From the NCBI GenBank assembly GCA_029569255.1, contig JAKQUO010000019.1, forward strand, positions 23,175 to 87,174: a DNA stretch of 64,000 nt. Reading direction: 5' to 3'. Position 1 is the first letter of the stretch. Every line of letters starts with the position of its first letter. The stretch is from Acidobacteriota bacterium. Lineage in GTDB: Bacteria > Acidobacteriota > Aminicenantia > Aminicenantales > Saccharicenantaceae. The translations under genes and the position numbers were made by a program. The notes beneath the pieces were generated by a model, which saw only the letters and a list, made by a program, of their open reading frames with translations, was not told where the DNA came from and did no database searches. This document shows, piece by piece, positions 1,170-51,586 of this stretch.

Positions 1170-3986
1170 GTGAAAACCCGCTTTTTCGCCGTTCTCATCA
1201 TCATGGCCCTGGCCGCCGCGCTGCCCTCGACGGCCGCGGCCCAGCTCAATCAGACGGGCACGCTGGCCGGCACGGTCACGGACAGCGACAAGCTGCCCTT
1301 GCCGGGGGCCACGGTCACGATCAAGTCCCCGGTCATCATCGTGCCCCAGATGGACGCGATCACGGGCCCTAAGGGGAATTACCGCTTCCTGTCCCTTCCC
1401 CCCGGGCTCTACGAGGTCGCCTTTTCGCTCGACGGCATGGACACGCTCGTCCGGAAGGACATCCGGATCAGCGTCGCGCAGACGACGACGATCGACGCCG
1501 TCCTGGAGCCGTCCACGCTGAGCGAGACGGTCGTCGTCGTCGGGGAGAGCCCGACGATCGACGTCAAGTCCACGACCAAGGCGACCAACCTGGACCGGAC
1601 GTTCATCGCCGCCCTGCCCACGGCGCGGAACCTGGACGCCTACTTCAACATGGCCCCCGGCGTCACCGCCGAACGGAACCCCAACGGGCTGATGTCGTCC
1701 GCCAGCGGGAGCGGCGTCCGCGACAACAGCTACAATCTGGACGGGGTGAACATGACGGCGCCGGACGTCGGCACCCAGCAGTTCCAGTTCGGCACGGACA
1801 TCATCGACGAGATCCTGATCCAGTCGGGGGGGATGCCGGCGGAGTTCGGGGACGCCATGGGGGCCTCGATCAACATCGTGACGCGCTCGGGCGGGAACAG
1901 GCTGAGCGGGTCGGCCAGCGTCTATTACAACACCCTCAAGCTGCAGTCCAACAACACGGCCGGCACGCCGCTGGAGGGGGCCAAGAGCGGCTACCAATAC
2001 GTCCTCGAACCCGGGATCGCCCTGGGAGGGCCGATCGCCAAGGAAAGGCTCTGGTTCTTCACCAACCTGAGCCTGAATTCCCGGTCCAGGCTCATCCCCG
2101 GCTTCCCCTACGACCAGCCCGCGCAGGTCCCGGCCAAGGAGACCCGCTACTACCCCTATGTCAAGCTGACCTTCCAGCCCAGCCAGGCCCACCGGTTCTC
2201 GGCCTCCTACAACTACTCCGATTACCTCCAGGACAACGCCGGCGCCAACCGGTTCGCGACCGAGAGCACCACGGTCAAGTGGACGGCCCCGACCCACATC
2301 CTCAACCTGCAATGGACGGCGACGTTCTCCCCGACCATGTTCGCCGATTTCAAGGTCGGCTACTATGTCAACAACCAGGAGCTCCGGTCGAAAGAGGACC
2401 TGCCCTTGATCGTCGAGCAGACGACCGCGCAACAGTCGGGCAGCTACGTCGGCACGGACCTCTACACGGCCGGCCGCTTCCAGACCAACGCCAACCTGAC
2501 CTATTTCGCCGACAGCTTGGCCGGGTCCCACGAATTCAAGGGCGGCGTCGAGTTCCAGGCCATCGACTCCACGCAGAGCTTCACGCCCAATGTGGACCCC
2601 CGGAACGGCATGTCGCAGATCATCACCCGCAGAGGCACGCCGCGTTACGGAGTCGTCATGGCGCCGTCGGCGAACAAGGTGGCCGGGACGAACATCCACG
2701 CCTACCTCCAGGACAGCTGGAAGCCCGCCAAGCGGCTGACGCTCAACCCGGGCCTGCGCCTGACCTACCAGAGCGGCCGCTTCCCGCCGCAGAACGAGAG
2801 CGAAGGTCCCCAGGACTTCCTGGGGGTCTCCTTCAACCGGAGCGTCACCCGGACGATCAACGCGTTCAACCGGACGGCCCTGGCGCCGCGGCTGGGCGTC
2901 ATCTTCGACCTGACGGGGGACCGCAAGACGCTGTTGAAGGCCAGCTACTCCCGCTACCTCCAGTCCAATATCATCGCCTATTACGCGTCGGCCAACCCCA
3001 ACGGTTCCTTCTCCTACGTCCAGGCCCTGGCCCCGGACTGGACCCCGGTCCCGGGCGCCTACCTCAACGCGAGCTTCCCGATCCCGGCCAAGGCGGGCTA
3101 CGACGGCGCCGGCATCAAGACCCCCTACACGGACGAATTCGCCGTGGCCGTGGAACGCGAGCTCTTTCCCGATTGGGTCCTGTCCGCCCGCTACACCCGC
3201 AAGGCGGACCGGAAGCTCATCGAGGACGTGGACGCCAACCAGCTGGACATCGACCGCCTGGCGGCCGACGGCGCGCTCGTCTGGACGAACTGGACACAGG
3301 TTCCGTTCACCGACCCCTATGACGGACAGGAGCGGTTTTTCTGGAGCATGAACGCCATCCTCCCGCCGGACTCCTACCTCATGAACCCTCCCGGGGCCGA
3401 AAGGGACTTCAAGGGCGTCGAGCTCACCCTGAACAAGCGCTATTCCCGGGGCTGGTCCCTCATGGCCAGCTACGTCTGGCAGGACGCGGTCGGGCTCATC
3501 TCCACCTCTTGGGGCGGCAGCACCGCGAATTCCGGCCTCTTCGACAACCCGAACTCCCACATCAACCAGTACGGCCACGCGTCGCTGTCGCCGCGGTCCC
3601 AGGTCAAGGTGCTGGGCATGGTCGCCGGCCCCTGGGGCATCAACGTCAGCGGGTTCTTCCGCTATTTCACGGGACAGCGCTACACGCGGACTCTGCACAG
3701 CTCGGACATGGGGGTCACGCTGGCTCAGGGGAACGAGACCATCAACGCCGAAAAGAGGGGCTCCCGGGAGCTCCCGAGCCAGGTCATCCTGGACCTGAGG
3801 CTGGAAAAGCTCTTCCGCCTGGGCGGGACCAAGGTGGCCTTCTTCGCCGACTGCTTCAATCTCTTCAACGGGAACAAGGCCACCTCCGTCCACACCCGGA
3901 GCGGCAGCCCGGTCTACGTGTTCGGGCAGATGACCGCGATCCAGGACCCGAGGGCCGTCCGGCTCGGGTTCCGTTTCGAGTTCTAG
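1170..3986 (+). CDS. TonB-dependent receptor with N-terminal carboxypeptidase-regulatory-like domain
   Basis: 938 aa with a signal peptide, a CarboxypepD_reg-like N-terminus (TLAGTVTDSDKLPLPGATVTI), plug and barrel, and an OMP-type C-terminal RLGFRFEF. GTG start follows a GAGGAGGA RBS. Confidence 0.85.
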   Translation: MKTRFFAVLIIMALAAALPSTAAAQLNQTGTLAGTVTDSDKLPLPGATVTIKSPVIIVPQMDAITGPKGNYRFLSLPPGLYEVAFSLDGMDTLVRKDIRISVAQTTTIDAVLEPSTLSETVVVVGESPTIDVKSTTKATNLDRTFIAALPTARNLDAYFNMAPGVTAERNPNGLMSSASGSGVRDNSYNLDGVNMTAPDVGTQQFQFGTDIIDEILIQSGGMPAEFGDAMGASINIVTRSGGNRLSGSASVYYNTLKLQSNNTAGTPLEGAKSGYQYVLEPGIALGGPIAKERLWFFTNLSLNSRSRLIPGFPYDQPAQVPAKETRYYPYVKLTFQPSQAHRFSASYNYSDYLQDNAGANRFATESTTVKWTAPTHILNLQWTATFSPTMFADFKVGYYVNNQELRSKEDLPLIVEQTTAQQSGSYVGTDLYTAGRFQTNANLTYFADSLAGSHEFKGGVEFQAIDSTQSFTPNVDPRNGMSQIITRRGTPRYGVVMAPSANKVAGTNIHAYLQDSWKPAKRLTLNPGLRLTYQSGRFPPQNESEGPQDFLGVSFNRSVTRTINAFNRTALAPRLGVIFDLTGDRKTLLKASYSRYLQSNIIAYYASANPNGSFSYVQALAPDWTPVPGAYLNASFPIPAKAGYDGAGIKTPYTDEFAVAVERELFPDWVLSARYTRKADRKLIEDVDANQLDIDRLAADGALVWTNWTQVPFTDPYDGQERFFWSMNAILPPDSYLMNPPGAERDFKGVELTLNKRYSRGWSLMASYVWQDAVGLISTSWGGSTANSGLFDNPNSHINQYGHASLSPRSQVKVLGMVAGPWGINVSGFFRYFTGQRYTRTLHSSDMGVTLAQGNETINAEKRGSRELPSQVILDLRLEKLFRLGGTKVAFFADCFNLFNGNKATSVHTRSGSPVYVFGQMTAIQDPRAVRLGFRFEF

Positions 3987-3999
3987 AAGGACCGGGCTC

Positions 4000-5454
4000 A
4001 TGGCGAGGCACCCGAACGACTCGCGGGGCCGGGGGCGAAAGCTCCCGGCCCCGTGGATCCTGGCGGCGGCCGTCCTGGCCTTCTGCTCGCTCTGCGCCTG
4101 CGCCCGGACCGCCCGGGACGCCCAGGGCGCCCCGGACGTCGCCGCCGCGATGGACGCCTATCTCACGGCCGCCCACAAGCTCCAGTGGTTCAGCGGGAAC
4201 GTCTTCGTCGCCCGCGGCGGCCGGGTCATCCTGAACAAGGGCTACGGCCTGGCCGATTACGAGCTCGGCGTCCCGTTCACGCCCCGGACCAAGTTCCGCC
4301 TGGGCTCGGTCACCAAGCAGTTCACGGCCATGGCCGTCCTCCAGCTCGAAGAGAAAGGCCTGCTCAAGGTCGCGGACACGGTCCGGTCGGTCTTCCCCGA
4401 TTACCCGGAGGGCGACCGGATCACCATCCACCATCTCCTGACGCACACGGCGGGCATCCCCAACTTCACCTCGTTCCCGGATTACCCGAAGGCGATGCTC
4501 TTCCCGACCTCGGTCCAGGAGGCGGTCGACCGGTTCAAGAACAGGCCGCTGGACTTCCCGCCGGGCGAGAAGTTCCGCTACAGCAATTCGGGCTACGTCC
4601 TGCTGGGGGCCATCATCGAGAAGGTCTCGGGGGAGACCTACGAGGCCTTTCTCCGGGAGAACATCTTCCGGCCGCTGGGCATGGAGGATTCGGGGTACGA
4701 CCACCGCGAGGACATCCTGAAGGACAGGGCGTCCGGCTACGAGTTCGTCAAGGACCAGAAGGTGAATGCCTCTTACGTCGACATGTCCGTCCCCTACGCG
4801 GCGGGGGCCCTCTATTCGACCGTCCTCGACCTCTACAAGTGGGACCGGGCCCTGTACACGGACAAGCTCGTGCCCCAGGCCGCGCTGACGAGGATGTTCA
4901 CGCCGTTCGATCCGCACGCCGGTCCGGCCCCCGCGACCGGGATGTCCAAGGAGACCTACGCCTACGGCTGGGTGGTCAAGTCGTCCGCCGGCCACAAGGA
5001 GATCAGCCACGGCGGCGGGGTCAACGGCTTCGCCACGCATATCGCCCGTTTCCCCGACGACGACGCCTGCGTCATCGTCCTGAACAACTTCCTGACCGCC
5101 CACATCCAGAGGGTCAGCGATTCCCTGGCCGCCCTTCTGTTCGGCCAGGCCGTCGAGATGCCGGAGGACAGAAAGCCCGTCAAGCTCCCGGCCGCGGTCC
5201 TGGATTCCTATCCGGGCCGCTATCAAGTGGAGGGCGAGCCGATGGTCTTCACCGTCGTGAGGGACGGCGACAACCTCCTGCTTCAGGCCCCCGGGCAGCC
5301 GGAGCTGGTCCTGCGGCCCCGGTCGGAGGCGGCGTTCTTCTCGAGACGGGCGAACATGGACGTGATCTTCGAGAAGGACGCCTCGGGCCGGGTCTCGCAT
5401 TTCGTCCTCGTCCGGGGCATCCTCAAGACGAAAGCCGTCCGAGTGGAGGAATGA
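4000..5454 (+). CDS. Serine hydrolase, beta-lactamase/D-aminopeptidase-like, probable lipoprotein
   Basis: SxxK active-site motif (SVTKQF) and a YxN-like region. The N-terminal signal has Cys residues resembling a lipobox. Confidence 0.8.
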   Translation: MARHPNDSRGRGRKLPAPWILAAAVLAFCSLCACARTARDAQGAPDVAAAMDAYLTAAHKLQWFSGNVFVARGGRVILNKGYGLADYELGVPFTPRTKFRLGSVTKQFTAMAVLQLEEKGLLKVADTVRSVFPDYPEGDRITIHHLLTHTAGIPNFTSFPDYPKAMLFPTSVQEAVDRFKNRPLDFPPGEKFRYSNSGYVLLGAIIEKVSGETYEAFLRENIFRPLGMEDSGYDHREDILKDRASGYEFVKDQKVNASYVDMSVPYAAGALYSTVLDLYKWDRALYTDKLVPQAALTRMFTPFDPHAGPAPATGMSKETYAYGWVVKSSAGHKEISHGGGVNGFATHIARFPDDDACVIVLNNFLTAHIQRVSDSLAALLFGQAVEMPEDRKPVKLPAAVLDSYPGRYQVEGEPMVFTVVRDGDNLLLQAPGQPELVLRPRSEAAFFSRRANMDVIFEKDASGRVSHFVLVRGILKTKAVRVEE

Positions 5455-5503
5455 CGGGCCGGGCCGCTCGTCCCGCGGGCCGGAGGAGGGAGAGGGAGTC
5501 ACG

Positions 5504-6721
5504 ATGAGGCCTTTCACGAGAACGGAGTTCCTGAAGATGCTGGGCGCGGGGGCCCTGGCCTCCGCCTTCCCGGCCCGCGCCGGCCTGGCGTCCCCGCGGA
5601 TGGAGAGCGCCAAGGCGGCCGCCAAGGCCCTGAGGATCAGGGACGTCGAGATCTATTACTGGGACATCCCTTTCAAGGAACCGCTCACCATCGCCCTGGG
5701 GACGATCACCGAAACGAACGGCGTGCTCATCCGCGTCCTGACGGACGCGGGCATCGTCGGGCTCGGCGAGTCCTGTCCGTTCGCCCCGGTCACGGGCGAC
5801 ACGCAGCAGACCAATATCGACGTCGCCCGGGACCTGCGGGAATCCCTCAAGGGCAAGGACCCCCTGGCCATCGAAAGCGCCGGGCGGACGATCGGGACGT
5901 TCGGGCGTTCGAACCCGTGCATCGTGGCCGCCTTCGACATGGCCCTCTACGACATCCTGGGCCAAGCGGCCGGGCTGCCGGTGTTCCGGCTCCTCGGCGG
6001 GGACAGGACGACCTTCGAGACGGACGCGACGACCGGCATCGACACCCCCGAGAAGATGGCCCGGAGCGCCCGGGAACATGTCGCCGCCGGGTTCAGGGCG
6101 CTGAAGGTCAAGATCGGCCAGGACCCCGACACGGACGTGGCCCGCCTCCAGGCCATCCGGGACGCCGTCGGCCCCGGCCCGGCGCTCCGGCTGGACGCCA
6201 ATCAGGGCTACACGGTGCCCCAGGCCCTCTACGCCTTGCGGCGGATGGAGAAGCTCGACATCCAGTTCTGCGAGCAGCCCGTCGTCCGCACCGACATCTC
6301 CGGCCTGAGGCAGGTCCGCGAGGCGAGCCCCATCGCCATCATGGCCGACGAATCCCTCTTCTCCCCCGTCGACGCCATCCGGCTCGTCAAGGAAGAGGCC
6401 TGCGATTATTTCAACATCAAGCTGATGAAGTGCGGCGGGATCGCCAACGCCGTCAAGATCTCGACGATCGGCGAGGCCGCCAACATTCGCTGCATGCTCG
6501 GCTGCAACAGCGAGACGCGTCTCGGGCTGACGGCCGCCGGCCACGTCCTCGGCGCGCAGAGCAACATCTTCTACGCCGACCTGGACGCCTTCCTGGCGCT
6601 GGGGATCGATCCGATCGCCGGGGGGATGACGGTCAAGAACGGGACGGCCACGCTCCCCGAAACGCCGGGGCTCGGCGCGGTCGTCGATCCGGCCTTCCTC
6701 AAGAAGCTGAAAAAGGCCTGA
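5504..6721 (+). CDS. Enolase-superfamily dipeptide epimerase-like enzyme (MR/MLE family) with Tat-type signal peptide
   Basis: KxK and DxN...E...D metal-ligand pattern typical of L-Ala-D/L-Glu epimerase-like proteins. The N-terminus MRPFTRTEFLKMLGAGALASAFPARAG resembles a twin-arginine signal. Confidence 0.75.
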   Translation: MRPFTRTEFLKMLGAGALASAFPARAGLASPRMESAKAAAKALRIRDVEIYYWDIPFKEPLTIALGTITETNGVLIRVLTDAGIVGLGESCPFAPVTGDTQQTNIDVARDLRESLKGKDPLAIESAGRTIGTFGRSNPCIVAAFDMALYDILGQAAGLPVFRLLGGDRTTFETDATTGIDTPEKMARSAREHVAAGFRALKVKIGQDPDTDVARLQAIRDAVGPGPALRLDANQGYTVPQALYALRRMEKLDIQFCEQPVVRTDISGLRQVREASPIAIMADESLFSPVDAIRLVKEEACDYFNIKLMKCGGIANAVKISTIGEAANIRCMLGCNSETRLGLTAAGHVLGAQSNIFYADLDAFLALGIDPIAGGMTVKNGTATLPETPGLGAVVDPAFLKKLKKA

Positions 6722-41881: not shown

Positions 41882-43212
41882 TTTTTTAATTTTTCCCCGT
41901 CCGTGAGAATCGGGACCCGTTTCGGCGTCTTTATCAAGGGCGGATATCCGTCCCTTGAAAAGCGAGCCTCCCATGTCAAGGCAACCGAGAATCGCGTATC
42001 CAGGCGCCTTCTACCATGTCTATTCCCGGGGAAACCAGAAACAACGGATCTTTTTCTCTGACGAGGATCGAGGCTTCTTCCTGAAGATCCTCAGGGACGC
42101 CCATGAGCGATTCTCGGCCATGTGGCATCTTCTGTGCCTCATGGAAAACCATTATCACCTGGGCTTGGAAACGCCGAAGGCCAATCTCTCCCAGATCATG
42201 CATTTCGTCAACTCGGCCTATTCCATCTACCTGAACACGAAACATGAAAGGTGCGGCCATATTTTCCAGGGGCGATTCAAGGCCATCCTCGTTCAAACCG
42301 GCCTCTACGCCCGGACCCTGACGAAGTACATCCACGCGAATCCCGTCCGGAAGGGCATCGTCGCGAAGCCGGAGGATTTCGAGTGGTCGAGTTGCCGGGT
42401 CTATTTTGGGCTTCGGCAGGCGCCCGCCTGGCTCAGCACGAAAACGATCATGGCTTGTTTCGAAGGCAACGCATCAGCCCTGCGAAAGGAGCACGAGGAT
42501 TATCTCGCTTCCCCGGAAGATCTGTCGTTCAGAGAGCAGCTCAGGTCGGCCGCCAGCGTCGGCATCCTGGGCGACGACGATTTCGTAGACAAGCTCCGCC
42601 GGTCTTTCTTGAAGGAGGCTCTCGAAGCGAACGACGATGAGCTCGGAGGACTCAGGAGGCTCCGGATCAGGCCGGAGCTCGGAAGGATCGCGGACGAGAT
42701 CCACAGAGAGTTGGGGGACAAGAACAAGCTGGCCAGGAAGTGCGCGATCTACTTCGCCCGCCATTACGCCGGCTACAAGCTCAAGGAGATCGGGGAATTC
42801 TACGGGATCGGCCCGGCCGCGGTTTCTATCGCGTTCCACGCCATAGAAAGCACCGTGGCCGCCAACGAAGTCTTGAAAGGCGCTTTCGAAAGAATCAAAG
42901 AACGGCTAACCTGGATTATTCACGAATCGACACGGCTCCCAGATGCGAGGCCCGAGGGGTGAAGCCGTACTCTGCGGCACCGCGAATCCCGAGAACGAAC
43001 GAGATGGGGCCGGTTCGGTTCGCCCGAAGGGTCAAAGCGCCCGGATAAGAATAAGCCCGGCTAATGACCTGAATCGTCGTCGAATCTAGACGTCCCTCAG
43101 ACGCGAAGTCCCGGGGGCGAGAACGAACGGGGCGTTTTATGAATAAACCTGGAAGAGCGGGAATCCGGCATCAAGGAAAAGGAGAAAATTAAACTTTTAA
43201 AGGTTTGACCCC
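41866..43212. mobile_element. 1.35-kb TIR-bounded element carrying a Y1 transposase::DnaA_C gene
   Basis: Left end GGGGTCAAACCTTTAATTTTTTAATTTTTCC. Right end (reverse complement) GGGGTCAAACCTTTAAAAGTTTAATTTTCTCC. The low-GC interior fills the whole space between two convergent stop codons. Confidence 0.65.
41955..42962 (+). CDS. IS200/RAYT-like Y1 (HUH) transposase fused to a DnaA C-terminal-like HTH domain
   Basis: HUH motif MENHYHL, catalytic Tyr region TKYIHANPVRKG, and a C-terminal helix-turn-helix resembling the DnaA domain IV (ARKCAIYFARHYAGYKLKEIGEFYGIGPAAVS). Confidence 0.75.
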   Translation: MKSEPPMSRQPRIAYPGAFYHVYSRGNQKQRIFFSDEDRGFFLKILRDAHERFSAMWHLLCLMENHYHLGLETPKANLSQIMHFVNSAYSIYLNTKHERCGHIFQGRFKAILVQTGLYARTLTKYIHANPVRKGIVAKPEDFEWSSCRVYFGLRQAPAWLSTKTIMACFEGNASALRKEHEDYLASPEDLSFREQLRSAASVGILGDDDFVDKLRRSFLKEALEANDDELGGLRRLRIRPELGRIADEIHRELGDKNKLARKCAIYFARHYAGYKLKEIGEFYGIGPAAVSIAFHAIESTVAANEVLKGAFERIKERLTWIIHESTRLPDARPEG

Positions 43213-43215
43213 TTC

Positions 43216-44319
43216 TTAGGCTTCGAGGCTGTAACAGGGGGCGGCGGCCGGGCGGGGCTTGCGCTTCGGCTTGGCCTTGACCTGGGGGTAGACGAACAGC
43301 TCGCCGGCGTAGTTCCGCAGCACGACCCGCTCGTCGGTGATCGACTGGATGTACTTCGGCAGGACGGGGATCTTGCCGCCGCCGCCGGGCGCGTCGATGC
43401 AGTAGTACGGGACGGCCAGGCCGGACGTCCAGCCGCGCAGGGCCTCCATGATCTCGAGGCCCTTCTCGACCGTCGTCCGCAGGTGCTCGGTCCCGCTCAC
43501 GTAGTCGGCCTGGTAGATGTAGTACGGCCGGACCCGCGCCGCCAGGAGCCTCTGCATGAGCCGGCGCATGACCAGCGGGTCGTCGTTGACGCCCTTGAGC
43601 AGCACCGTCTGGTTGCCGAGCGGGATGCCGGCGTCGGCCAGCAGGCCCAGGGCCCGCGTCGCCTCGGGCGTCAGCTCGTCGGGGTGGTTGAAGTGGACGT
43701 TGACGTAGAGCGGGTGGTACTTCTTGAGCATGGCCGCGAGCTTTTCCGTGACCCGCTGCGGCAGGACGCAGGGCACCCGCGTGCCGACGCGGATGATCTC
43801 GACGTGCGGGACGGCCCGGACGCCCTTGATGACGGCCTCGAGCCGGCGGTCGCTGAGCATGAGCGGGTCGCCGCCGGAGACGATGACGTCCCGGATCTCG
43901 CCGTGGGCCCGGATGTAGGCCAGCCCGTCCTCGATGTAGCGGGGGTGGATCTTGGAGGGATCGCCGACCTTCCTCTTCCGGGTGCAGAAGCGGCAGTAGG
44001 AGGCGCAGCTGTGCGAGACGAGGAAGAGGCACCGGTCGGGGTAGCGGTGGACGATGCTCGGCACCGGGGAGTCGTGGTCTTCCTCGAGCGGGTCGGCGAC
44101 GCCGCTGCCGGTCCTGAGCTCGGCCGGGTCCGGGACCATCTGGCGCCACATGGCGTCCCCGCGCTCCTTGATCAGCCCGGCGTAGTAAGGCGTGATCTGG
44201 ATCTTGAACGTCTTGGCGATCCGCCGGACCTCCTCGACGTCGAGCCCGAACTTCCGGGCGATCTCCTCGGGTTTCCGGAGAGCGCCTCGGAGCGAGCGTT
44301 GCCAGTCGTCCATCTCCAA
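43216..44319 (-). CDS. kamA: Lysine 2,3-aminomutase family radical SAM enzyme (KamA/EpmB-like)
   Basis: CASYCRFCTRK radical SAM motif and KamA-family conserved blocks (IRDVIVSGGDPL, HPLYVNVHFNHP). 367 aa. Confidence 0.8.
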   Translation of the reverse strand: MEMDDWQRSLRGALRKPEEIARKFGLDVEEVRRIAKTFKIQITPYYAGLIKERGDAMWRQMVPDPAELRTGSGVADPLEEDHDSPVPSIVHRYPDRCLFLVSHSCASYCRFCTRKRKVGDPSKIHPRYIEDGLAYIRAHGEIRDVIVSGGDPLMLSDRRLEAVIKGVRAVPHVEIIRVGTRVPCVLPQRVTEKLAAMLKKYHPLYVNVHFNHPDELTPEATRALGLLADAGIPLGNQTVLLKGVNDDPLVMRRLMQRLLAARVRPYYIYQADYVSGTEHLRTTVEKGLEIMEALRGWTSGLAVPYYCIDAPGGGGKIPVLPKYIQSITDERVVLRNYAGELFVYPQVKAKPKRKPRPAAAPCYSLEA

Positions 44320-44323
44320 GCTC

Positions 44324-44797
44324 CTAACGGTGATACTTCGCGTAGATGACGCGGTCGTCGCCGGCCCGGTAGAAATCGGGGACGCGGGCGACTTCCTTGT
44401 ATCCGAGATCGATGTAGAACCGCCGCGTGGCGTGGTATTTCGGCTGGGACGAGGTCTCGATGAAGACGACCCGGCCGTCGCGCCGCCGGACCTCGGCCTC
44501 GAGCCAGCGGACGAGCTCCTTGCCCCGGCCCTTCCCCTGCTCCGCCGGCGCCACGGCCATCCAGTACAGGTCGTAGGCGTCCTCGGCCAGCGGCGTCGGG
44601 CCCCAGGTCATGTAGCCGGCCACTCCCCTCGCGTCGTTCTCGACGACGACGACGCGGTAGTCCGTCTGCTCCGGCCGGCCGAGGTAGATGTCCACGAGCT
44701 CCTCGGCCACGGCCACCTCGGCCTCGGTGAAGAACCCCGTCGCCCGGACGAGCCCGAGGACGGCGTCCTTATCGCGCGCTTCCATCGGCCGGATCAT
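44324..44797 (-). CDS. GNAT family N-acetyltransferase
   Basis: 157 aa with an acetyl-CoA binding motif (QGKGRGKELVRWLE). A 4-nt gap separates it from kamA. Confidence 0.75.
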   Translation of the reverse strand: MIRPMEARDKDAVLGLVRATGFFTEAEVAVAEELVDIYLGRPEQTDYRVVVVENDARGVAGYMTWGPTPLAEDAYDLYWMAVAPAEQGKGRGKELVRWLEAEVRRRDGRVVFIETSSQPKYHATRRFYIDLGYKEVARVPDFYRAGDDRVIYAKYHR

Positions 44798-45803
44798 TGA
44801 CCGTCCTTCTCTTCAGGGCGTTGTCGATCATGGCGCCCCAGAACGCGGCGTATTCGATCCCCGCGGCCGCGAGGGCCCGGGCGTAGCCGGCGTTGGTGCT
44901 GATGTCGGGGTTCGGGTTGACCTCGAGGATGAACGGCCGGCCCCTGGCGTCCATGCGGAAGTCGATCCGGGCGTAGTCGCGGCAGCCCATGGTCCGGAAG
45001 GCCGCCTCGGCCAGGCCCTGCAGCCCGGCCCGCAGCCCGTCGTCGATCGGGGCCGGGCAGACGGGCGGCGTCTTCTGGTAGAGCGGGTGGTCCTCGAACC
45101 ATTTCGCGTCGTAGCCGAGGATGCGCGGCGTGTCCTCGGGCATGGCCGAGAAGTCGATCTCGGAGACCGGCAGGGCCCGGGCCCGGCCGTTCTCCATGAC
45201 CGAGACGTTGAACTCCCGGCCGTCGATGAAGGCCTCGACCAGGACCGGCTGCCGGTAGCTGTCGAGGCAGCGGCGGACCTGGCGGCGCAGCGACTCCTCG
45301 TCGCGGACGACGGACTCGGGGTAGACCCCCAGGCTGGCGTCCTCGGCGTTGGGCTTGACGATGAGCGGGAAGCGCAGCTCGAGCGGCTCCTCGCCGGTCG
45401 TCATGAGCTGGGCCGGGGCCGTCGGCAGCCCGGCCGCCTTGAGCACCGCCTTGGCCCTGAACTTGTCCTGGCAGAGGGCCAGCGTCTTGGCCCCGTTGCC
45501 CGTGAACGAGAGGCCCAGGAGCTCGAACATGCCGGCCACGTTCGACTCCCACTGGGGCCGCCCGTAGTAGCCCTCGCAGAGGTTGACCAGGGCGTCGGGG
45601 TTGAGCTCCCGGACCCGGCTCATGAAGTTGAGCAGGCTCCGCTGGAGCGGGACGAGGGTCGCCCCGAGCCCCAGGCTGAGGACGGCCTCCTGGGCCTGCC
45701 GGGCCATCTCGGCCACGGACTCCTCGGACAAACGCTCGCCCGCCGCCGTCGGTCTCGGTTCGTAGGCGTTGAAGACGATGGCGATCGCGGGGGCAGGGGT
45801 CAT
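44769..45803 (-). CDS. ATP-grasp ligase, D-alanine-D-alanine ligase family
   Basis: 344 aa. Its C-terminal half aligns with the Ddl catalytic region (YDAKWF...RDYARIDFRMD...ILEVNPNPD). Confidence 0.75.
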   Translation of the reverse strand: MTPAPAIAIVFNAYEPRPTAAGERLSEESVAEMARQAQEAVLSLGLGATLVPLQRSLLNFMSRVRELNPDALVNLCEGYYGRPQWESNVAGMFELLGLSFTGNGAKTLALCQDKFRAKAVLKAAGLPTAPAQLMTTGEEPLELRFPLIVKPNAEDASLGVYPESVVRDEESLRRQVRRCLDSYRQPVLVEAFIDGREFNVSVMENGRARALPVSEIDFSAMPEDTPRILGYDAKWFEDHPLYQKTPPVCPAPIDDGLRAGLQGLAEAAFRTMGCRDYARIDFRMDARGRPFILEVNPNPDISTNAGYARALAAAGIEYAAFWGAMIDNALKRRTVNDPADGSAR

Positions 45804-46909
45804 GCGCGATCCGCGTGGACCGCCGGCCGCTCGCTCGCCGCGGGCCGGACGCGCGTCGGACGGAGGCCGCAGCGCTTGCTCGCCTCCTCCACGACCCTGT
45901 GGATCAGGTCCGAATAGGAATACCCGGCGGTCCGGGCCGCCTTGGGCAGGCAGGAGTTGTCCTCGGGGTTGGGCAGGACGCCCGGCAGCGGGTTGACCTC
46001 GAGGATGTTCGGCTCTCCCTTCTCGTCGAGCCGGACGTCGAGCCGGGCCCAGTCCCGGACGCGCAGGACGCGGCAGGTCCGGAGGACGACGGTCTCGATC
46101 TTGGCCGCGAGGACCGCGGGGATGGGCGCCGGGCACTTGAAGATGTCGAGGGGCTTCTCCGGCGTGTCCCACAGCCACTTGGCCTCGTAGGAGTAGACGG
46201 GCGCCGCGCCGGCCGGCAGCTGGGCGTGGTCGATCTCGACGATGGGCAGGACCTCGTAGGCCGGGTCGTTGCCCAGGACGCCGACCGTGAACTCGCGCCC
46301 GGTGAGGAAGCGCTCGACGATCGCGGGCTGGCGGTAGGCCCCGGTGACCTCCTCGACGCGCTCGTAGAGCTCGCCGAGGCTGTGGACGAGGGAGTTGTTC
46401 CTGATGCCCTTGCTCGAGCCCTCGAAGAGGGGCTTGACGATGGCCGGCAGGCGGACGCCGGCCGGGATGGCCGTCGGCGACTCGACGACCCAGAAGGCCG
46501 GGTTGGGGACCCGGTGGTAGGACAGGATCTCCTTGGCCCGCGACTTGTCGAGGCAGATGCCGAGCGTCAGCGGATCGGACCCCGTGTAGGGGATGTCCAG
46601 CATCTCGCAGATCGAGGGGATGTGCGACTCGCGGTTGGGGCCGACGACGCGCTCGGCCATGTTGAAGACGAGGTGCGGCCGCTGGCGTTTCAGCCGGCCG
46701 AAGGCTTTGTCGTCGGACTCGATGAAGACGACCTGGTGCCTCTCCCGGAGAACCTGCCCGACCGCCGCGATCGTCTCGTCCGAGTCGCACTCGGCGAGCA
46801 TGTCCGGCGGCAATGGAGGCTCGTCCTCCTCGCTCTTCGGCGCTTCGGGGCGGGGCGGGAGGGTCGCCTCCATCCCCGCTTTCGAGCTATAGACCAACGC
46901 CACTTTCAT
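45800..46909 (-). CDS. ATP-grasp ligase, D-alanine-D-alanine ligase family (second, paralogous)
   Basis: 369 aa with the same architecture (YSYEAKWLW ... RDWARLDVRLD ... ILEVNPLPG). Overlaps the downstream ATP-grasp gene by 4 nt. Confidence 0.75.
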   Translation of the reverse strand: MKVALVYSSKAGMEATLPPRPEAPKSEEDEPPLPPDMLAECDSDETIAAVGQVLRERHQVVFIESDDKAFGRLKRQRPHLVFNMAERVVGPNRESHIPSICEMLDIPYTGSDPLTLGICLDKSRAKEILSYHRVPNPAFWVVESPTAIPAGVRLPAIVKPLFEGSSKGIRNNSLVHSLGELYERVEEVTGAYRQPAIVERFLTGREFTVGVLGNDPAYEVLPIVEIDHAQLPAGAAPVYSYEAKWLWDTPEKPLDIFKCPAPIPAVLAAKIETVVLRTCRVLRVRDWARLDVRLDEKGEPNILEVNPLPGVLPNPEDNSCLPKAARTAGYSYSDLIHRVVEEASKRCGLRPTRVRPAASERPAVHADRA

Positions 46910-46976
46910 TTCGCTTGCCCTTCCTTCAACCGACGCTCACGCGCGAGAATTCCGTCACGTTCATTTGAATTCATTT

Positions 46977-47007
46977 TCATATATAGACCATTTGAACCAA
47001 TTGTCAA
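46977..47007 (-). promoter_or_regulatory. Near-consensus sigma70-type promoter (TTGACA-N16/18-TATATA/G) about 60 nt upstream of the ATP-grasp/GNAT/KamA operon
   Basis: Read on the minus strand in an AT-rich intergenic patch at 46960-47040. Confidence 0.5.
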
Positions 47008-47190
47008 GTCTTTTGTCGGACGAGACCACTTTTTTTTGTGGAAGAGGCTGCGGCCGCCACCACCGGTAGTGTCATTCGGCGCGGGGCCGCAAAATCGTCC
47101 ACACGGGACCGCCGGCCGGAGCGGCCGGGCGCGGCGCGCGCGTCCGGGGAAAGGGCGAACTGGGAGTTCATGGAGGGGTCCGGGCGGCGC

Positions 47191-48441
47191 TTACCTGAAG
47201 AACACCAGCGTGACGACCGCGTAGAGCGGAATGAGGAGGGCGAAGGAATAGGCCATGTAGCCGAAGAACGAGGGCATCTTCAGCTTGTATTCCTCGGCGA
47301 TGACCTTGACCATGAAGTTCGGGCCGTTGCCGATGTACGAGTTGGCGCCCATGAAGACGGCGCCGGCGCTGATGGCCATGAGCATCGTCGTCGGGATGCC
47401 CAGCATCGGCCCGTCGAGGCCGAGGCCCTGGGCCATGGAGAAGAAGGCCAGGTAGGTCGGCGTGTTGTCGAGGAACGAGGACAGCGCGCCGGTGGCCCAG
47501 AAGAACTGCCAGGGCCGGGCGACGCCGAGGTCGGCCGCCCGGGCGCTGAGGATGAGCAGGGCCGGGACCATGGTGACGAAGATCCCGGCGAAGAGGACGG
47601 CCACCTCGATGATCGGGTTGTAGGTGAACCTGTTGTCGAGGCGGCACTGGCGCTTCGTCGTCAGGAGCGACAGGACGGCCATGAGGATGAGCGCGCCCTC
47701 GCGGCGCGGGAAGGGCTGGAAGACGCCGGCGATGACGCCGGCCAGCCAGAGGAAGTTGACCGTCCCGGTCAGGCGGAGGGGGACGACCCGGCGCCGGTCG
47801 CGGATGAGGTCCCGGCACTCCTCCTTGCGATACTGGACGCCGTCGTAGAGGTAGAACAAGAGGACGACGCCGCCGACCATGATGGCCCAGAGCGGGAAGA
47901 GGCGCAGGGTCCAGAAGAACGGCACGCCCTTGATGAAGCCCATGAACAGCGGCGGGTCGCCGAGCGGGGTCAGCAGGCCGCCGATGTTGGAGACGACGAA
48001 GATGAAGAAGATGGGGACGTGGAGCGTGCGCTTGCGCTCGGAGTTGGTCTGGAGCAGGGGCCGGATGAGGAGCATCGAGGCCCCGGTCGTGCCGATGAAG
48101 TTGGCCAGGACGGCCCCGACGAGGAGGAACAGGGCGTTGACCTCGGGCGTCGCCTTGAGGTCCCCCTTGAGGACGATGCCGCCCGAGATGATGAACAGGG
48201 CCGTGAGCAGGAGGAGGAACGAGGCGTAGTCCTTCATCGACAGGGCCAGCTCGTGGGGGGCGTTGAAAAGGAAGTAGACGGCGATCGGCAGGGACCAGAG
48301 GAAGGCCACCAGCCCCTTGTTCTTGTGGTCCTCCCAGAAGTGCGGGGCGCGGAGCGGCAGGAGGGCGATGGACAGCAGGAGGCCGACGAACGGGACGACC
48401 GTCCACAGCGACATCGTCCGGCCGAGCTCGTGAGCGCTCAT
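47191..48441 (-). CDS. NhaD/ArsB-superfamily ion transporter (putative Na+/H+ antiporter)
   Basis: 416 aa with about 11-12 TM helices and the ion-transporter-superfamily pattern (YbiR/NhaD-like). Confidence 0.7.
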   Translation of the reverse strand: MSAHELGRTMSLWTVVPFVGLLLSIALLPLRAPHFWEDHKNKGLVAFLWSLPIAVYFLFNAPHELALSMKDYASFLLLLTALFIISGGIVLKGDLKATPEVNALFLLVGAVLANFIGTTGASMLLIRPLLQTNSERKRTLHVPIFFIFVVSNIGGLLTPLGDPPLFMGFIKGVPFFWTLRLFPLWAIMVGGVVLLFYLYDGVQYRKEECRDLIRDRRRVVPLRLTGTVNFLWLAGVIAGVFQPFPRREGALILMAVLSLLTTKRQCRLDNRFTYNPIIEVAVLFAGIFVTMVPALLILSARAADLGVARPWQFFWATGALSSFLDNTPTYLAFFSMAQGLGLDGPMLGIPTTMLMAISAGAVFMGANSYIGNGPNFMVKVIAEEYKLKMPSFFGYMAYSFALLIPLYAVVTLVFFR

Positions 48442-48522: not shown

Positions 48523-49383
48523 TCAAGGCAGGAAGACCGTGGAGAGATGGTAGGCCCGGGGCGGCAGCTTGCGCCGCAGGGCCTTCCTCTCGAAGAGGCG
48601 GATCCCGGAGCCGTCGTCGCTCGGCGGGGTCAGGAAGACGAACGCGGCCCCGGCGGCCCAGAGCGCTTCGAGGAGCTCGAGCGGCAGGCCGCGTTCGACG
48701 CGGACCACGGCCCGCGAGCCCGCCCGCGAGGCGGCCGCGGCGATGGCGACGGCCCGCTCGGCCGCCGGTTCCTCGGCCAGGCCCTCGTCCCCGAAATGGA
48801 TCCAGGCCCCCCGGCCCGCCGTCCCGGCCAGGCCGTCGGCCGGCGGCCCGACGTGATAGAGGACGAAGTAGGCCCGGCCCTTCTTCGCGGCGGCGGCCAG
48901 GCTCGCCAGGGCCGCGGCGTCCCGGGGATGGGTCCGGTCGGAGATGTGGAAGTCCAGGCCCGCCCCGAGCAGGTCCTCGAGGTCCTGGAAGGACGGGCCG
49001 GAGGCGGCTTCGGCGCCGGGCAGGGGGCCGGCCCAGAAGACCGAAAGGCGCGCGCCGCCCTTGCGGCAGGCGGCCAGCAGGACCTCCCACTCGTCGGCCC
49101 GAGGCCGGGCCTCGTCCGAGGTCAGGACGCGCGCCCCGGCGCGGGCCAGGGCCTCGACCTCGACGAGCCCGAACCGGCCCGTGTCGAGGACGCTGAGGGG
49201 GATGCGGCGGCGGCGGGCGTAGGCGGCGGCGTCGAGGAGGGCCTCGTGGCCGAACTGGTCGTCGCGGATGACGAGGTCCTGGCGCGTCCGGACGCGGTCC
49301 ATGAGCTCGTAGGTCCGAACGACACCGGCCACGCCCTCGGCGATCGTCTTTTCGCTCATCTGCGGAATTTCAAGATATACCAC
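48523..49383 (-). CDS. Hypothetical protein
   Basis: 286 aa with good GC3 periodicity. No family recognised. Confidence 0.4.
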   Translation of the reverse strand: MVYLEIPQMSEKTIAEGVAGVVRTYELMDRVRTRQDLVIRDDQFGHEALLDAAAYARRRRIPLSVLDTGRFGLVEVEALARAGARVLTSDEARPRADEWEVLLAACRKGGARLSVFWAGPLPGAEAASGPSFQDLEDLLGAGLDFHISDRTHPRDAAALASLAAAAKKGRAYFVLYHVGPPADGLAGTAGRGAWIHFGDEGLAEEPAAERAVAIAAAASRAGSRAVVRVERGLPLELLEALWAAGAAFVFLTPPSDDGSGIRLFERKALRRKLPPRAYHLSTVFLP

Positions 49384-49945: not shown

Positions 49946-50644
49946 GTGACCTCGTGCGTGGTCCTGTTCTCGGGCGGGCTCGACTCGACGACGGCCCTGG
50001 CCTGGGCGCTCGACCGCTACGACCGGGTCCAGGCCCTGACTTTCGATTACGGCCAGAGGCACCGCGCCGAGGTCCGTTCGGCCCGCCTGACGGCCCGGCG
50101 CCTCGGCGTCCCGCACGCCGTCCTCAAGGTCGACCTGCGGCCCGTCGGCGGCTCGGCCCTGACCGACCCCCGCGCTCCCCTCCCCCGCCCGAAGCGCGCG
50201 TCGAAGCCGCGGACCGGGCCGCCGGCGACCTACGTCCCGTTCCGCAACGGCGTCTTCCTCGCCCTGGCCGCCGCCTGGGCCGAGGCCCGCGGCCTGCGCG
50301 ACCTCGTCTGCGGCTTCCACGTCGCCGACTCCCCCGGCTACCCCGACACGACGAAGGCCTTCGTCAGGGCCATGGAGAGGGCCATCCGGGCCGGGACCGG
50401 GGCCGCTTTCGGCGCCTCCCCCGCGCCCCGGATCGTCGCGCCGCTCCTCGGCCTGGACAAGCCGGGGATCATCCGGCTCGGCCTCCGGCACGGCGCCGAC
50501 TATTCGCGGACCGTCTCCTGCTACGCCGGCGGGGAGCGCCCCTGCGGGACGTGCGCGTCCTGCCGCTACCGGGCCCGGGCCTGGAGGGCCGTCGGCCGCG
50601 AAGACCCCCTCCTCGCCCGCCTCAGAAAGGAAGGACAGCCATGA
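49946..50644 (+). CDS. queC: 7-cyano-7-deazaguanine synthase
   Basis: LFSGGLDSTT PP-loop plus a C-terminal Cys cluster (CYAGGERPCGTCASC). Confidence 0.85.
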   Translation: MTSCVVLFSGGLDSTTALAWALDRYDRVQALTFDYGQRHRAEVRSARLTARRLGVPHAVLKVDLRPVGGSALTDPRAPLPRPKRASKPRTGPPATYVPFRNGVFLALAAAWAEARGLRDLVCGFHVADSPGYPDTTKAFVRAMERAIRAGTGAAFGASPAPRIVAPLLGLDKPGIIRLGLRHGADYSRTVSCYAGGERPCGTCASCRYRARAWRAVGREDPLLARLRKEGQP

Positions 50645-50988
50645 GTTGGACGCTCAAGGTCCGCGACAGGTTCTCGGCCGCCCACTACCTCGAGGGATAC
50701 AGGGGCAAGTGCGAGAAGGTCCACGGCCACACCTTCCGGGTCGAGGTCGCGGTCCGGGCCCGGGAGCTCGACGGGGCCGGGATCGGCTACGACTTCACCG
50801 AGATCAGGAAGGCCCTGGCCGCCGTCCTCCCCGACCACGCTTTCCTCAACGAGGCCTTCCCCTTCAACCCTTCCGCCGAGAACCTGGCCCGCCACTTCTA
50901 CGGCGAGCTCAAGAGGTCCTACCCGGTCGCGTCCGTGACCGTCTGGGAGTCCGAAGATGCCTCGGCCACCTACGCTGAAGACGACTGA
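50641..50988 (+). CDS. queD: 6-carboxy-5,6,7,8-tetrahydropterin synthase
   Basis: 115 aa with a CEKVHGH zinc motif. ATGA overlap with queC. Confidence 0.85.
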   Translation: MSWTLKVRDRFSAAHYLEGYRGKCEKVHGHTFRVEVAVRARELDGAGIGYDFTEIRKALAAVLPDHAFLNEAFPFNPSAENLARHFYGELKRSYPVASVTVWESEDASATYAEDD

Positions 50989-51586
50989 GGTCTTCGCCTC
51001 GGTCCAGGGCGAGGGCCTCCGCCAGGGCGAGCCGACCGTTTTCATCCGCCTGGCCGGCTGCAACCTCCGCTGCGGCTTCTGCGACACCAAGCGGGCCTGG
51101 CGGGGCGGCCGGGAGAGGACGGTCGCCGGGATCGTCGGGGAGGCGGTCCGCCTCCGCCGCCGCCTTCCCGCGGCCTGGGCCTGCGTGACCGGCGGCGAAC
51201 CCCTGGCCCAGGACGTCGGCCCGCTCCTCCGGGCTCTCGGCGCCGCCGGGTTCAAGGTCCAGGTCGAGACGAACGGGACGTTCCCGCCCGTCGCCGGCGC
51301 CGACTGGCTCACGGCCTCGCCCAAGCCGCCGGACTACGATGCCCACCCCGGTATAATAAAGGAAGCGCGGGAGGTCAAGTTGGTCGCCTGCCGGTCGCTC
51401 ACGCTCGACGCCGTGAGGGCCGTCCGGGCGGCCTTCCCCCGGCGGACGCCGCTCCTCATCCAGCCGCAGTCGAACGCCGCCTGGAGCCGGGAGCGCGCGC
51501 TCGGGCTCCTGCGGGGAGCGGCCCGGTCGGGGCTCGAGGGCGTCCGCCTGGCGGTCCAGCTGCACCGGATCTACAAGGTTCGTTAG
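50957..51586 (+). CDS. queE: 7-carboxy-7-deazaguanine synthase (radical SAM)
   Basis: CNLRCGFC cluster motif and a QueE-like length of 209 aa. Confidence 0.8.
   Translation: MPRPPTLKTTEVFASVQGEGLRQGEPTVFIRLAGCNLRCGFCDTKRAWRGGRERTVAGIVGEAVRLRRRLPAAWACVTGGEPLAQDVGPLLRALGAAGFKVQVETNGTFPPVAGADWLTASPKPPDYDAHPGIIKEAREVKLVACRSLTLDAVRAVRAAFPRRTPLLIQPQSNAAWSRERALGLLRGAARSGLEGVRLAVQLHRIYKVR

Follow-up and report, generated by a model that had tools for sequence, protein, structure and literature searches.

Organization of the four-gene operon

The window analyzed here, a 64-kb stretch of contig JAKQUO010000019.1 from an Acidobacteriota bacterium of the Aminicenantales (GCA_029569255.1), contains at positions 43216-47007 an operon whose genes are all on the minus strand. 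They encode two ATP-grasp ligases related to D-alanine--D-alanine ligase (Ddl), a small N-acetyltransferase and an aminomutase of the KamA family, and this set of genes, hereafter the cassette, is a candidate module for the synthesis of an acetylated beta-lysine oligo-amide. The first gene, AG1 (45800-46909), starts with ATG and encodes a ligase of 369 amino acids (aa), deposited as 'D-alanine--D-alanine ligase' (HPW16867.1). It is followed by AG2 (44769-45803), encoding the second Ddl-like ligase, of 344 aa; by GNAT (44324-44797), encoding the acetyltransferase, of 157 aa; and by KamA (43216-44313), encoding a radical S-adenosylmethionine (SAM) and pyridoxal phosphate (PLP) enzyme of 365 aa, deposited as 'KamA family radical SAM protein' (HPW16864.1). 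The length of KamA is counted from an ATG codon, and a TTG at 44319 is an alternative start. An earlier note on this DNA had delimited the same four genes, whose ends agree with the sequence; Pfam and NCBIfam confirm the domains of the four proteins. It had also described them as packed with overlaps or gaps of 4 nt, which holds for the AG1 stop and the AG2 start (ATGA) and fails for the other two junctions: AG2 and GNAT overlap by 29 nt, or by 17 nt should Met5 be the true start of GNAT, and 10 nt separate the GNAT stop from the KamA start. The AG2/GNAT overlap is likewise called as 29 nt in a relative (L002). In our reading they form a single transcription unit, which would encode a self-contained biosynthetic module.

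An open reading frame (ORF) of 673 aa (46790-44769) in the AG2 frame was rejected as a gene call: it consists of AG2 and a spurious in-frame upstream extension, of a kind made common by the high GC content (about 70%), and the homologues of AG2 are 343-345 aa long. Many other long spurious ORFs, antisense or out of frame, are present on both strands between 38000 and 52000 of the window, such as those of 469 aa (45815-47224, plus strand) and 409 aa (44688-45917, plus strand). Since the high GC content gives rise to them, raw ORF lists of this region need homology support.

Aminomutase and acetyltransferase

KamA shows the Pfam domains Radical_SAM and LAM_C and passes only the cut-off of the KamA-family model TIGR00238 (287 bits, cut-off 199). 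With the AblA equivalog model (TIGR03820) it scores 459.9 bits, below the cut-off of 525.4, and leaves unmatched about the last 55 of the 417 model positions, those after about 361. Nine cassette KamA proteins from other phyla score between 447 and 502 bits with the same model, all below 525. The window protein is also below the cut-offs of the glutamate 2,3-aminomutase (413 bits, cut-off 650) and arginine 2,3-aminomutase (337 bits, cut-off 600) models. With the EpmB equivalog model it reaches 228.9 bits (cut-off 369.3), when the EpmB of Escherichia coli, used as control, reaches 533.9, and cassette KamA proteins score 220-257 bits against that cut-off of 369.

The alignment of KamA with lysine 2,3-aminomutase (PDB 2A5H, E 2e-112) pairs C103, C107 and C110 of the CxxxCxxC motif, and the PLP lysine K314, with C125, C129, C132 and K337 of 2A5H. 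KamA R112, D270 and D307 correspond to 2A5H R134, D293 and D330, which we take to be the binders of the lysine carboxylate and epsilon-ammonium groups; they are conserved in 113 or 114 of 114 cassette KamA sequences, and both aspartates typical of the lysine enzymes are thus retained. The motif cysteines and the PLP lysine are invariant in the same 114 sequences. The conservation of the Fe-S cysteines, the PLP lysine and these three residues makes lysine the likely substrate of KamA. As regards the choice between KamA and EpmB that the earlier note had left to profile searches, the protein is of the lysine type and not an EpmB.

GNAT is above the cut-offs of Acetyltransf_7 (44.5 bits) and Acetyltransf_1 (38.9 bits), also shows Acetyltransf_10, and its translation contains the acetyl-CoA motif QGKGRG, of the Q/R-x-x-G-x-G/A type. 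Eight NCBIfam models match it with E <= 0.01: no equivalog reaches its cut-off, the best match is rimI (37.9 bits, cut-off 86.4) and none is of the AblB type. Its match in the PDB is 2R7H (E 9e-33), a product of structural genomics that was deposited under the name 'putative D-alanine N-acetyltransferase of GNAT family'.

Substrate-site residues of the two ligases

AG1 and AG2 share 34% identity (BLASTP E 1e-45). Profile searches assign both to the Ddl family through the Pfam domain Dala_Dala_lig_C (E 4e-32 for AG1), as the earlier note had expected, and both are below the cut-offs of the two Ddl models: with NF002378 (cut-off 243) AG1 gives 167.1 bits and AG2 149.4 bits, and with TIGR01205 (cut-off 245.65) they give 134 and 138 bits, respectively. 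Their closest solved relatives are the small-molecule ligases Ddl and VanA, and not RimK or TTL.

The alignment of 155 AG1 and 118 AG2 sequences with E. coli DdlB shows that the residues of DdlB involved in ATP binding, Mg binding and catalysis (K97, K144, E180, E187, K215, R255, D257, E270 and N272) are conserved in both sets, with the sole exception of a change from Glu to Asp at the E187 position in one AG1. In AG1 these residues are K122, K159, E199, E206, K244, R289, D291, E304 and N306. The substrate site is different: H63 of DdlB is replaced by Glu and Y216 by Trp, invariantly in both ligases (E86 and W245 in AG1). AG2 also has the specific changes S150A, G276D, S281A and L282G (A156, D300, A305 and G306 in AG2), and AG1 shows L282C. 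From these alignments we conclude that AG1 and AG2 are probably active ligases whose specificity differs from that of Ddl and from each other. The additional acidic residues of their predicted pockets would fit cationic substrates.

Distribution and synteny of the cassette

Genomes were scanned with a 10-sequence AG1 alignment, since a 35-sequence version was too diverse, and 80 loci were obtained; a scan of metagenomes gave 80 more. Each locus comprises the AG1 match and flanks of up to 10 kb, and its gene content was established by gene-by-gene tblastn. In the genome scan, the order AG1-AG2-GNAT-KamA on one strand is found in ten lineages: Aminicenantes (several genera), Verrucomicrobiota, Planctomycetota, Kryptonia, Calditrichota, Ignavibacteriota (including Melioribacter roseus), Bacteroidota, Lentisphaerae, Desulfuromonadales/Geobacteraceae and KSB1. 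The same order is present in many metagenome contigs; in all, it recurs in more than ten bacterial phyla, and archaea have the genes in fused form. Gene counts refer to the 89 loci in which AG1 is flanked by 3.3 kb or more on either side: KamA is present in 78 and the four genes together in 70, nine have polyamine genes instead of KamA, two have neither, and no locus has both. AG1 and AG2 are automatically annotated as D-alanine--D-alanine ligase.

Clustering of the flanking ORFs of 57 loci (L028-L084) revealed no other neighbour conserved across phyla, and synteny beyond the cassette is lineage-specific. One such lineage-specific neighbour, in the Ignavibacteriota/Bacteroidota group, is a 730-aa protein read as RecG from its N-terminal sequence.

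Gene fusions

The representatives of the AG1 family at 50% identity include 18 AG1-AG2, two KamA-AG1 and one AG1-KamA fusions. A search with one of the KamA-AG1 fusions returned more than 100 clusters of KamA-AG1 proteins of about 700 aa, mostly archaeal and on contigs of up to 654 kb, and the hosts of this fusion are Thermoplasmatota, Methanocellales, Woesearchaeota, Nanoarchaeota, Spirochaetales and Deltaproteobacteria. Five fusion loci (L167-L171) were inspected. In all of them an AG2-like gene comes after the KamA-AG1 fusion: AG2 in Woesearchaeota L167; a gene for a 512-aa AG2-GNAT fusion protein in the archaeal contig L168; AG2 and then a GNAT gene in Methanocellales L171; and two further ATP-grasp genes in L169 and the deltaproteobacterial L170. 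No KamA-GNAT fusion is among the fusions found. The KamA-AG1 and AG2-GNAT fusions tie beta-lysine formation to AG1 and acetylation to AG2. Through cross-phylum synteny and fusions, the check proposed in the earlier note, conserved synteny of the four genes in related genomes, comes out in favour of one functional unit.

In L167, the KamA-AG1 fusion and AG2 (2030-5684) are just downstream of genes encoding MscL, Na_H_Exchanger, Na_Ca_ex and CorA. L167 provides a second example, independent of the window, of the module beside ion-homeostasis genes.

Loci with homospermidine-pathway genes

The nine loci with polyamine genes show, directly in front of AG1-AG2, genes encoding a SpeY-like homologue of deoxyhypusine synthase (PF01916) and a pyruvoyl arginine decarboxylase (PF01862), and four of the nine also have an agmatinase (ureohydrolase) homologue (PF00491). 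Operons of this type are found in Thermodesulfobacteriota and other deltaproteobacterial contigs. The polyamine genes form one overlapping operon with AG1-AG2, with or without GNAT; a third, distant ATP-grasp-like protein is sometimes encoded, and a methyltransferase gene is located downstream. The bacterial deoxyhypusine synthase homologue SpeY is a homospermidine enzyme, and arginine decarboxylase, a SpeY homologue and a ureohydrolase constitute an agmatine-dependent homospermidine pathway (PMC13625781); the term 'ATP-grasp' is absent from the text of that paper. The genes of this pathway are a partner module upstream of AG1-AG2 in KamA-less loci, and not the cassette itself. None of them is found in the 64 kb of the window.

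A family of proteins of about 305 aa, with at most a faint match to ATPgrasp_ST, is encoded between the arginine decarboxylase gene and AG1 in the polyamine-type operons and also near some KamA-type cassettes: L053 (2077-3015), L056 (7081-7986), L049 (1106-2044), L023 (from about 11748) and L060 (from 1). This family is a possible third ligase of the pathway.

KamA would provide a diamino acid and the polyamine gene set a triamine to the same pair of ligases. AG1 and AG2 thus appear to act on polycationic amine building blocks rather than on osmolytes specifically.

Proposed pathway

The pathway proposed here starts from the observed gene structure, conservation, fusions and active-site residues; its chemical steps, their order, the partner substrates and the role of the product are inferred. 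KamA would convert L-lysine into beta-lysine (3,6-diaminohexanoate). AG1 would take beta-lysine directly and form an ATP-dependent amide bond through an acyl-phosphate, with Ddl-like chemistry; AG2 would form a second amide bond, and GNAT would acetylate an amino group that is still free. The product is predicted to be a small N-acetylated oligo-amide containing beta-lysine, a cytoplasmic metabolite resembling a polyamine or a compatible solute. It would be neither D-Ala-D-Ala, nor the N-epsilon-acetyl-beta-lysine of AblA/AblB, nor beta-lysyl-elongation factor P (EF-P). We favour, by somewhat better than an even chance, this reading of the cassette as a module in which KamA, AG1, AG2 and GNAT make an acetylated beta-lysine oligo-amide; a beta-lysine-containing oligo-amide was also among the candidate products of the earlier note, and it stays the best reading.

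Known systems offer parallels. An acetyltransferase and one or more ATP-grasp ligases build a small N-acetylated peptide-like solute in the synthesis of N-acetylglutaminylglutamine amide (NAGGN), by the bifunctional GNAT/ATP-grasp protein Ngg and AsnO, and in that of N-acetylaspartylglutamate (NAAG), by NAT8L and RIMKLA/B. The logic is shared, and L168 has an AG2-GNAT fusion; the cassette differs from these systems in having Ddl-like and not RimK-like ligases, no amidotransferase and, as building block, a beta-amino diamino acid from a radical-SAM enzyme. A further parallel in function is offered by glutathionylspermidine and trypanothione synthetases, with one or two ATP-dependent ligases that acylate a polyamine at its terminal amines; the AG1-AG2 pair shares an operon with homospermidine-pathway genes in some lineages.

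A broader and more tentative proposal, to which we give clearly less than an even chance, is that AG1 and AG2 make a widespread class of polycationic metabolites, amide conjugates built on beta-lysine, homospermidine or both, in more than 10 bacterial phyla and several archaeal lineages, including DPANN. Examples would be a beta-lysyl-homospermidine or a trypanothione-like bis-acylated diamine, and the operons linked to KamA and to homospermidine genes would be two precursor routes to the same or to sister compounds. Alternatively, beta-lysine and homospermidine may be parts of one product, the other precursor being encoded elsewhere in the genome.

Several observations weigh against the proposed pathway or its extension to homospermidine. 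No AG1 residue separates the KamA-linked from the polyamine-linked versions at the 85% level; without a context-specific residue the same reaction may occur in both contexts, so that beta-lysine and homospermidine may not be interchangeable. AG1 keeps the serine that binds the second-substrate carboxylate in DdlB, a misfit with a pure polyamine as nucleophile. GNAT or AG2 is missing from some versions: KamA and AG1 are alone in the Nitrospinota L057 and L068, and also in L104 and L117. The archaeal cassette acetyltransferases belong to another GNAT subfamily (Acetyltransf_3/4/8), which the window GNAT does not match. The appearance of AG1 as the core of the cassette arises because all the loci were collected with AG1 as query.

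Alternative explanations

The proteins of the cassette do not qualify as Ddl, AblA, AblB or EpmB. That AG1 and AG2 are genuine D-Ala-D-Ala ligases of peptidoglycan synthesis, merely located beside KamA, is what the automatic annotation and the best solved relatives would say, and DdlA/DdlB and VanA do share with the cassette ligases the ATP-grasp fold, the ATP, Mg and catalytic residues and the YxYEAK(Y/W) omega-loop motif, from which amide formation through an acyl-phosphate is expected. The scores below the Ddl cut-offs, the replacement of H63 and Y216 in both ligases, and of G276, S281 and L282 as well in AG2, and the lack of mur or fts genes near the cassette in the window speak against it. 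So do the archaeal orthologues fused to KamA: archaea are not known to have D-Ala-D-Ala peptidoglycan, and a peptidoglycan role is therefore excluded by these orthologues. The probability of this explanation is close to nil. Bona fide Ddl enzymes would have refuted the proposal of the earlier note, and by profile scores and substrate-site residues the two ligases are not genuine Ddl enzymes. An osmolyte route of the AblA/AblB type, in which KamA and GNAT would make N-epsilon-acetyl-beta-lysine for salt stress and the ATP-grasp genes would be accessory or unrelated, has more to recommend it. As in methanogens, a KamA-family gene adjoins an acetyltransferase gene, with beta-lysine as the intermediate to be expected; the curated equivalog closest to KamA is AblA (460 bits); and ion transporters adjoin the cassette in the window (CitMHS_2) and in the Woesearchaeota contig described above. 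A full-text literature search found no paper on the cassette, which bears out the impression of the earlier note that this gene combination is not a described pathway; the nearest report is the genome paper of Pelobacter carbinolicus, in which a KamA/acetyltransferase pair, which may or may not be of the cassette type, is named ablA/ablB and the osmolyte is proposed (PMC3543383). Nevertheless, KamA is below the AblA cut-off in the window and in the nine other phyla, the minimal GNAT matches no AblB-type model, and the linkage to transporters is not conserved. The two ATP-grasp ligases are integral to the cassette and are fused to KamA and to a GNAT in archaea; KamA is fused to AG1 and was not seen fused to GNAT, and there are KamA-AG1 pairs without GNAT. 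The AblA/AblB framing of the earlier note is weakened by these fusions and GNAT-less versions, and we regard this osmolyte route as unlikely.

In E. coli, the beta-lysine for EF-P modification comes from KamA-family enzymes, and the cassette could also modify a macromolecule: AG1 would put beta-lysine on a protein, for example on EF-P or aIF5A, in place of EpmA, or on a ribosomal-protein carboxylate, as RimK does, and AG2 and GNAT would extend and cap it. EpmB and EpmA are indeed a short KamA-family enzyme (about 340-370 aa) and a dedicated ligase that attaches beta-lysine through its carboxylate, the alternative partner gene of AG1-AG2 is a deoxyhypusine synthase homologue, the module is kept in DPANN archaea with small genomes, and Verrucomicrobiota L032 shows efp-epmA 1.1 kb upstream of the cassette. 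The evidence on the other side is that the cassette ligase is an ATP-grasp protein and not a paralogue of lysyl-tRNA synthetase, with Ddl and VanA, and not RimK or TTL, as closest solved relatives; that the KamA proteins are outside the EpmB equivalog (220-257 bits, cut-off 369); that SpeY is a homospermidine enzyme (PMC13625781); and that there is no conserved candidate target gene nearby. With the E. coli genes efp, epmA and epmB as tblastn queries, efp/epmA are near the cassette in one of about 160 loci, a linkage that is not conserved, and neither gene is in the window. Since a true efp-epmA pair is nearby in L032 alone, the EF-P idea is treated as a minor rival, and we hold macromolecule modification to be improbable. 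The cassette could instead produce an oligomer or polymer, AG1 joining beta-lysine to beta-lysine and AG2 extending the chain to an oligo- or poly-beta-lysine whose charge is tuned by GNAT, a polycation that would be a polyamine substitute or a nitrogen store. Ddl, in this scenario the homodimerising ancestor of AG1, joins two identical amino acids, which fits such a reaction, as do the minimal versions with KamA and AG1 only, the versions with three or four ATP-grasp genes and the polycation physiology suggested by the link to polyamine genes. Against it, the homospermidine-linked versions could not polymerise in this way, and the substrate-site signatures of AG1 and AG2 are distinct and separately invariant, which suggests two distinct reactions and not one repeated. 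The chances of a beta-lysine oligomer or polymer are accordingly small in our estimation.

Two observations concern efp and epmA in other loci. In L032 (70-1552), efp and an epmA-like gene of 305 aa are separated from the cassette by one ORF on the opposite strand; no separate epmB-like gene is present within the 11.9 kb of this locus, so the KamA of the cassette could also feed EF-P modification there. The apparent epmA matches near the polyamine-type operons were rejected, as they are full-length lysyl-tRNA synthetases of 497 aa.

Beta-lysine is known as a fermentation intermediate and as a building block of a few antibiotics, one archaeal osmolyte and the EF-P modification. The association of AG1-AG2 with homospermidine genes would link beta-lysine chemistry to polyamine physiology. 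The breadth over which the genes are conserved, and partly fused, spanning Aminicenantes, Bacteroidota, Thermoplasmatota and DPANN archaea, implies that an undescribed metabolite or modification is common to many uncultured anaerobes. The labels 'D-alanine--D-alanine ligase' and 'lysine 2,3-aminomutase/ablA' are currently carried in error by thousands of genes, and the identity of the product would correct them. The acetylated oligo-amide pathway proposed here is compact, with two to four genes, is present in species that are named and in culture, Melioribacter roseus among them, and is directly testable.

Predicted promoter and leader region

A promoter-like block upstream of AG1 was read from the sequence at 46980-47007 (minus strand): TTGACA (47007-47002), a 16-nt spacer and TATATA (46985-46980), the latter 70 nt before the AG1 ATG. 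The pattern TTGACA-N15-18-TATAWA occurs once in the window, and gives no match in 100 shuffles. Across nine Aminicenantes relatives, CTTGACA...TCTATA(A/T)AT.AAA stands out as invariant within an intergenic region that has diverged elsewhere, and the core AATGGTCTATAWATGAAAA is present 5' of AG1 in six relatives. A strict consensus scan reported no promoter, because the -10 hexamer lacks the final T; the call is therefore based on phylogenetic footprinting and not on the consensus scan. The near-consensus promoter of the earlier note is thus supported as TTGACA-N16-TATATA, unique in the window and conserved across the nine relatives. A ribosome-binding site, GAAGGAAGGG (46918-46927, minus strand), also read from the sequence, is 8 nt before the start codon of AG1, and its GAAnGAAGG is kept in the aligned Aminicenantes relatives. 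No riboswitch or leader RNA family of Rfam was matched at E <= 1 over 42900-47300, and the single terminator-like hairpin given by a terminator scan is intragenic and was disregarded.

Two more conserved blocks are located 5' of the -35 hexamer on the minus strand (47058-47071 and 47024-47040): an imperfect palindrome, CACTACCGGTGGTG (CACTACTAATGGTG in relatives), and CACAAAAAAAAGTGGTC, in which GTGGTC resembles the ATGGTC immediately preceding the -10 hexamer. An operator or an UP element is a possible reading of these blocks.

Neighbouring genes in the window

A transporter gene (47191-48441, minus strand; HPW16868.1, deposited as 'sodium:proton antiporter') adjoins the cassette. The protein belongs to the Pfam family CitMHS_2 (E 1e-150), and no NCBIfam family, including any curated NhaD model, matches it at E <= 0.01; the labels 'NhaD/arsenite permease-like' and 'sodium:proton antiporter' come from automatic annotation only. 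Its association with the cassette is confined to close Aminicenantes relatives: Saccharicenans, which has V-type ATPase genes at this position, and every other phylum lack it beside the cassette. The earlier note had placed an NhaD-type antiporter downstream of the operon and taken it as a sign of osmoadaptation; the gene is in fact upstream (5') of the operon, and the argument does not hold for a CitMHS_2 gene with an automatic NhaD label and a linkage restricted to close relatives. Upstream of the operon there is also a gene for a 286-aa protein (48523-49383, minus strand) with no Pfam or NCBIfam match, which recurs more widely within Aminicenantes than the transporter, including a relative without transporter and KamA.

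Two genes upstream, on the plus strand (49946-51586), three ORFs are read as queC, queD and queE from their position and from the Pfam labels of relatives (QueC, PTPS and Radical_SAM). This que-like neighbourhood is shared with other Aminicenantes and represents lineage-specific synteny. On the other side of the operon, a gene encoding a REP-associated tyrosine transposase (IS200-like Y1_Tnp; 41955-42962, plus strand) converges on the KamA stop; its score with the NCBIfam model REP_Tyr_transpos is 65.9 bits, below the cut-off of 80. It appears to be a local insertion between KamA and a gene encoding a SIS-domain protein, because relatives carry either different genes or no gene there. The GC content of the transposase patch is 0.62, against about 0.70.

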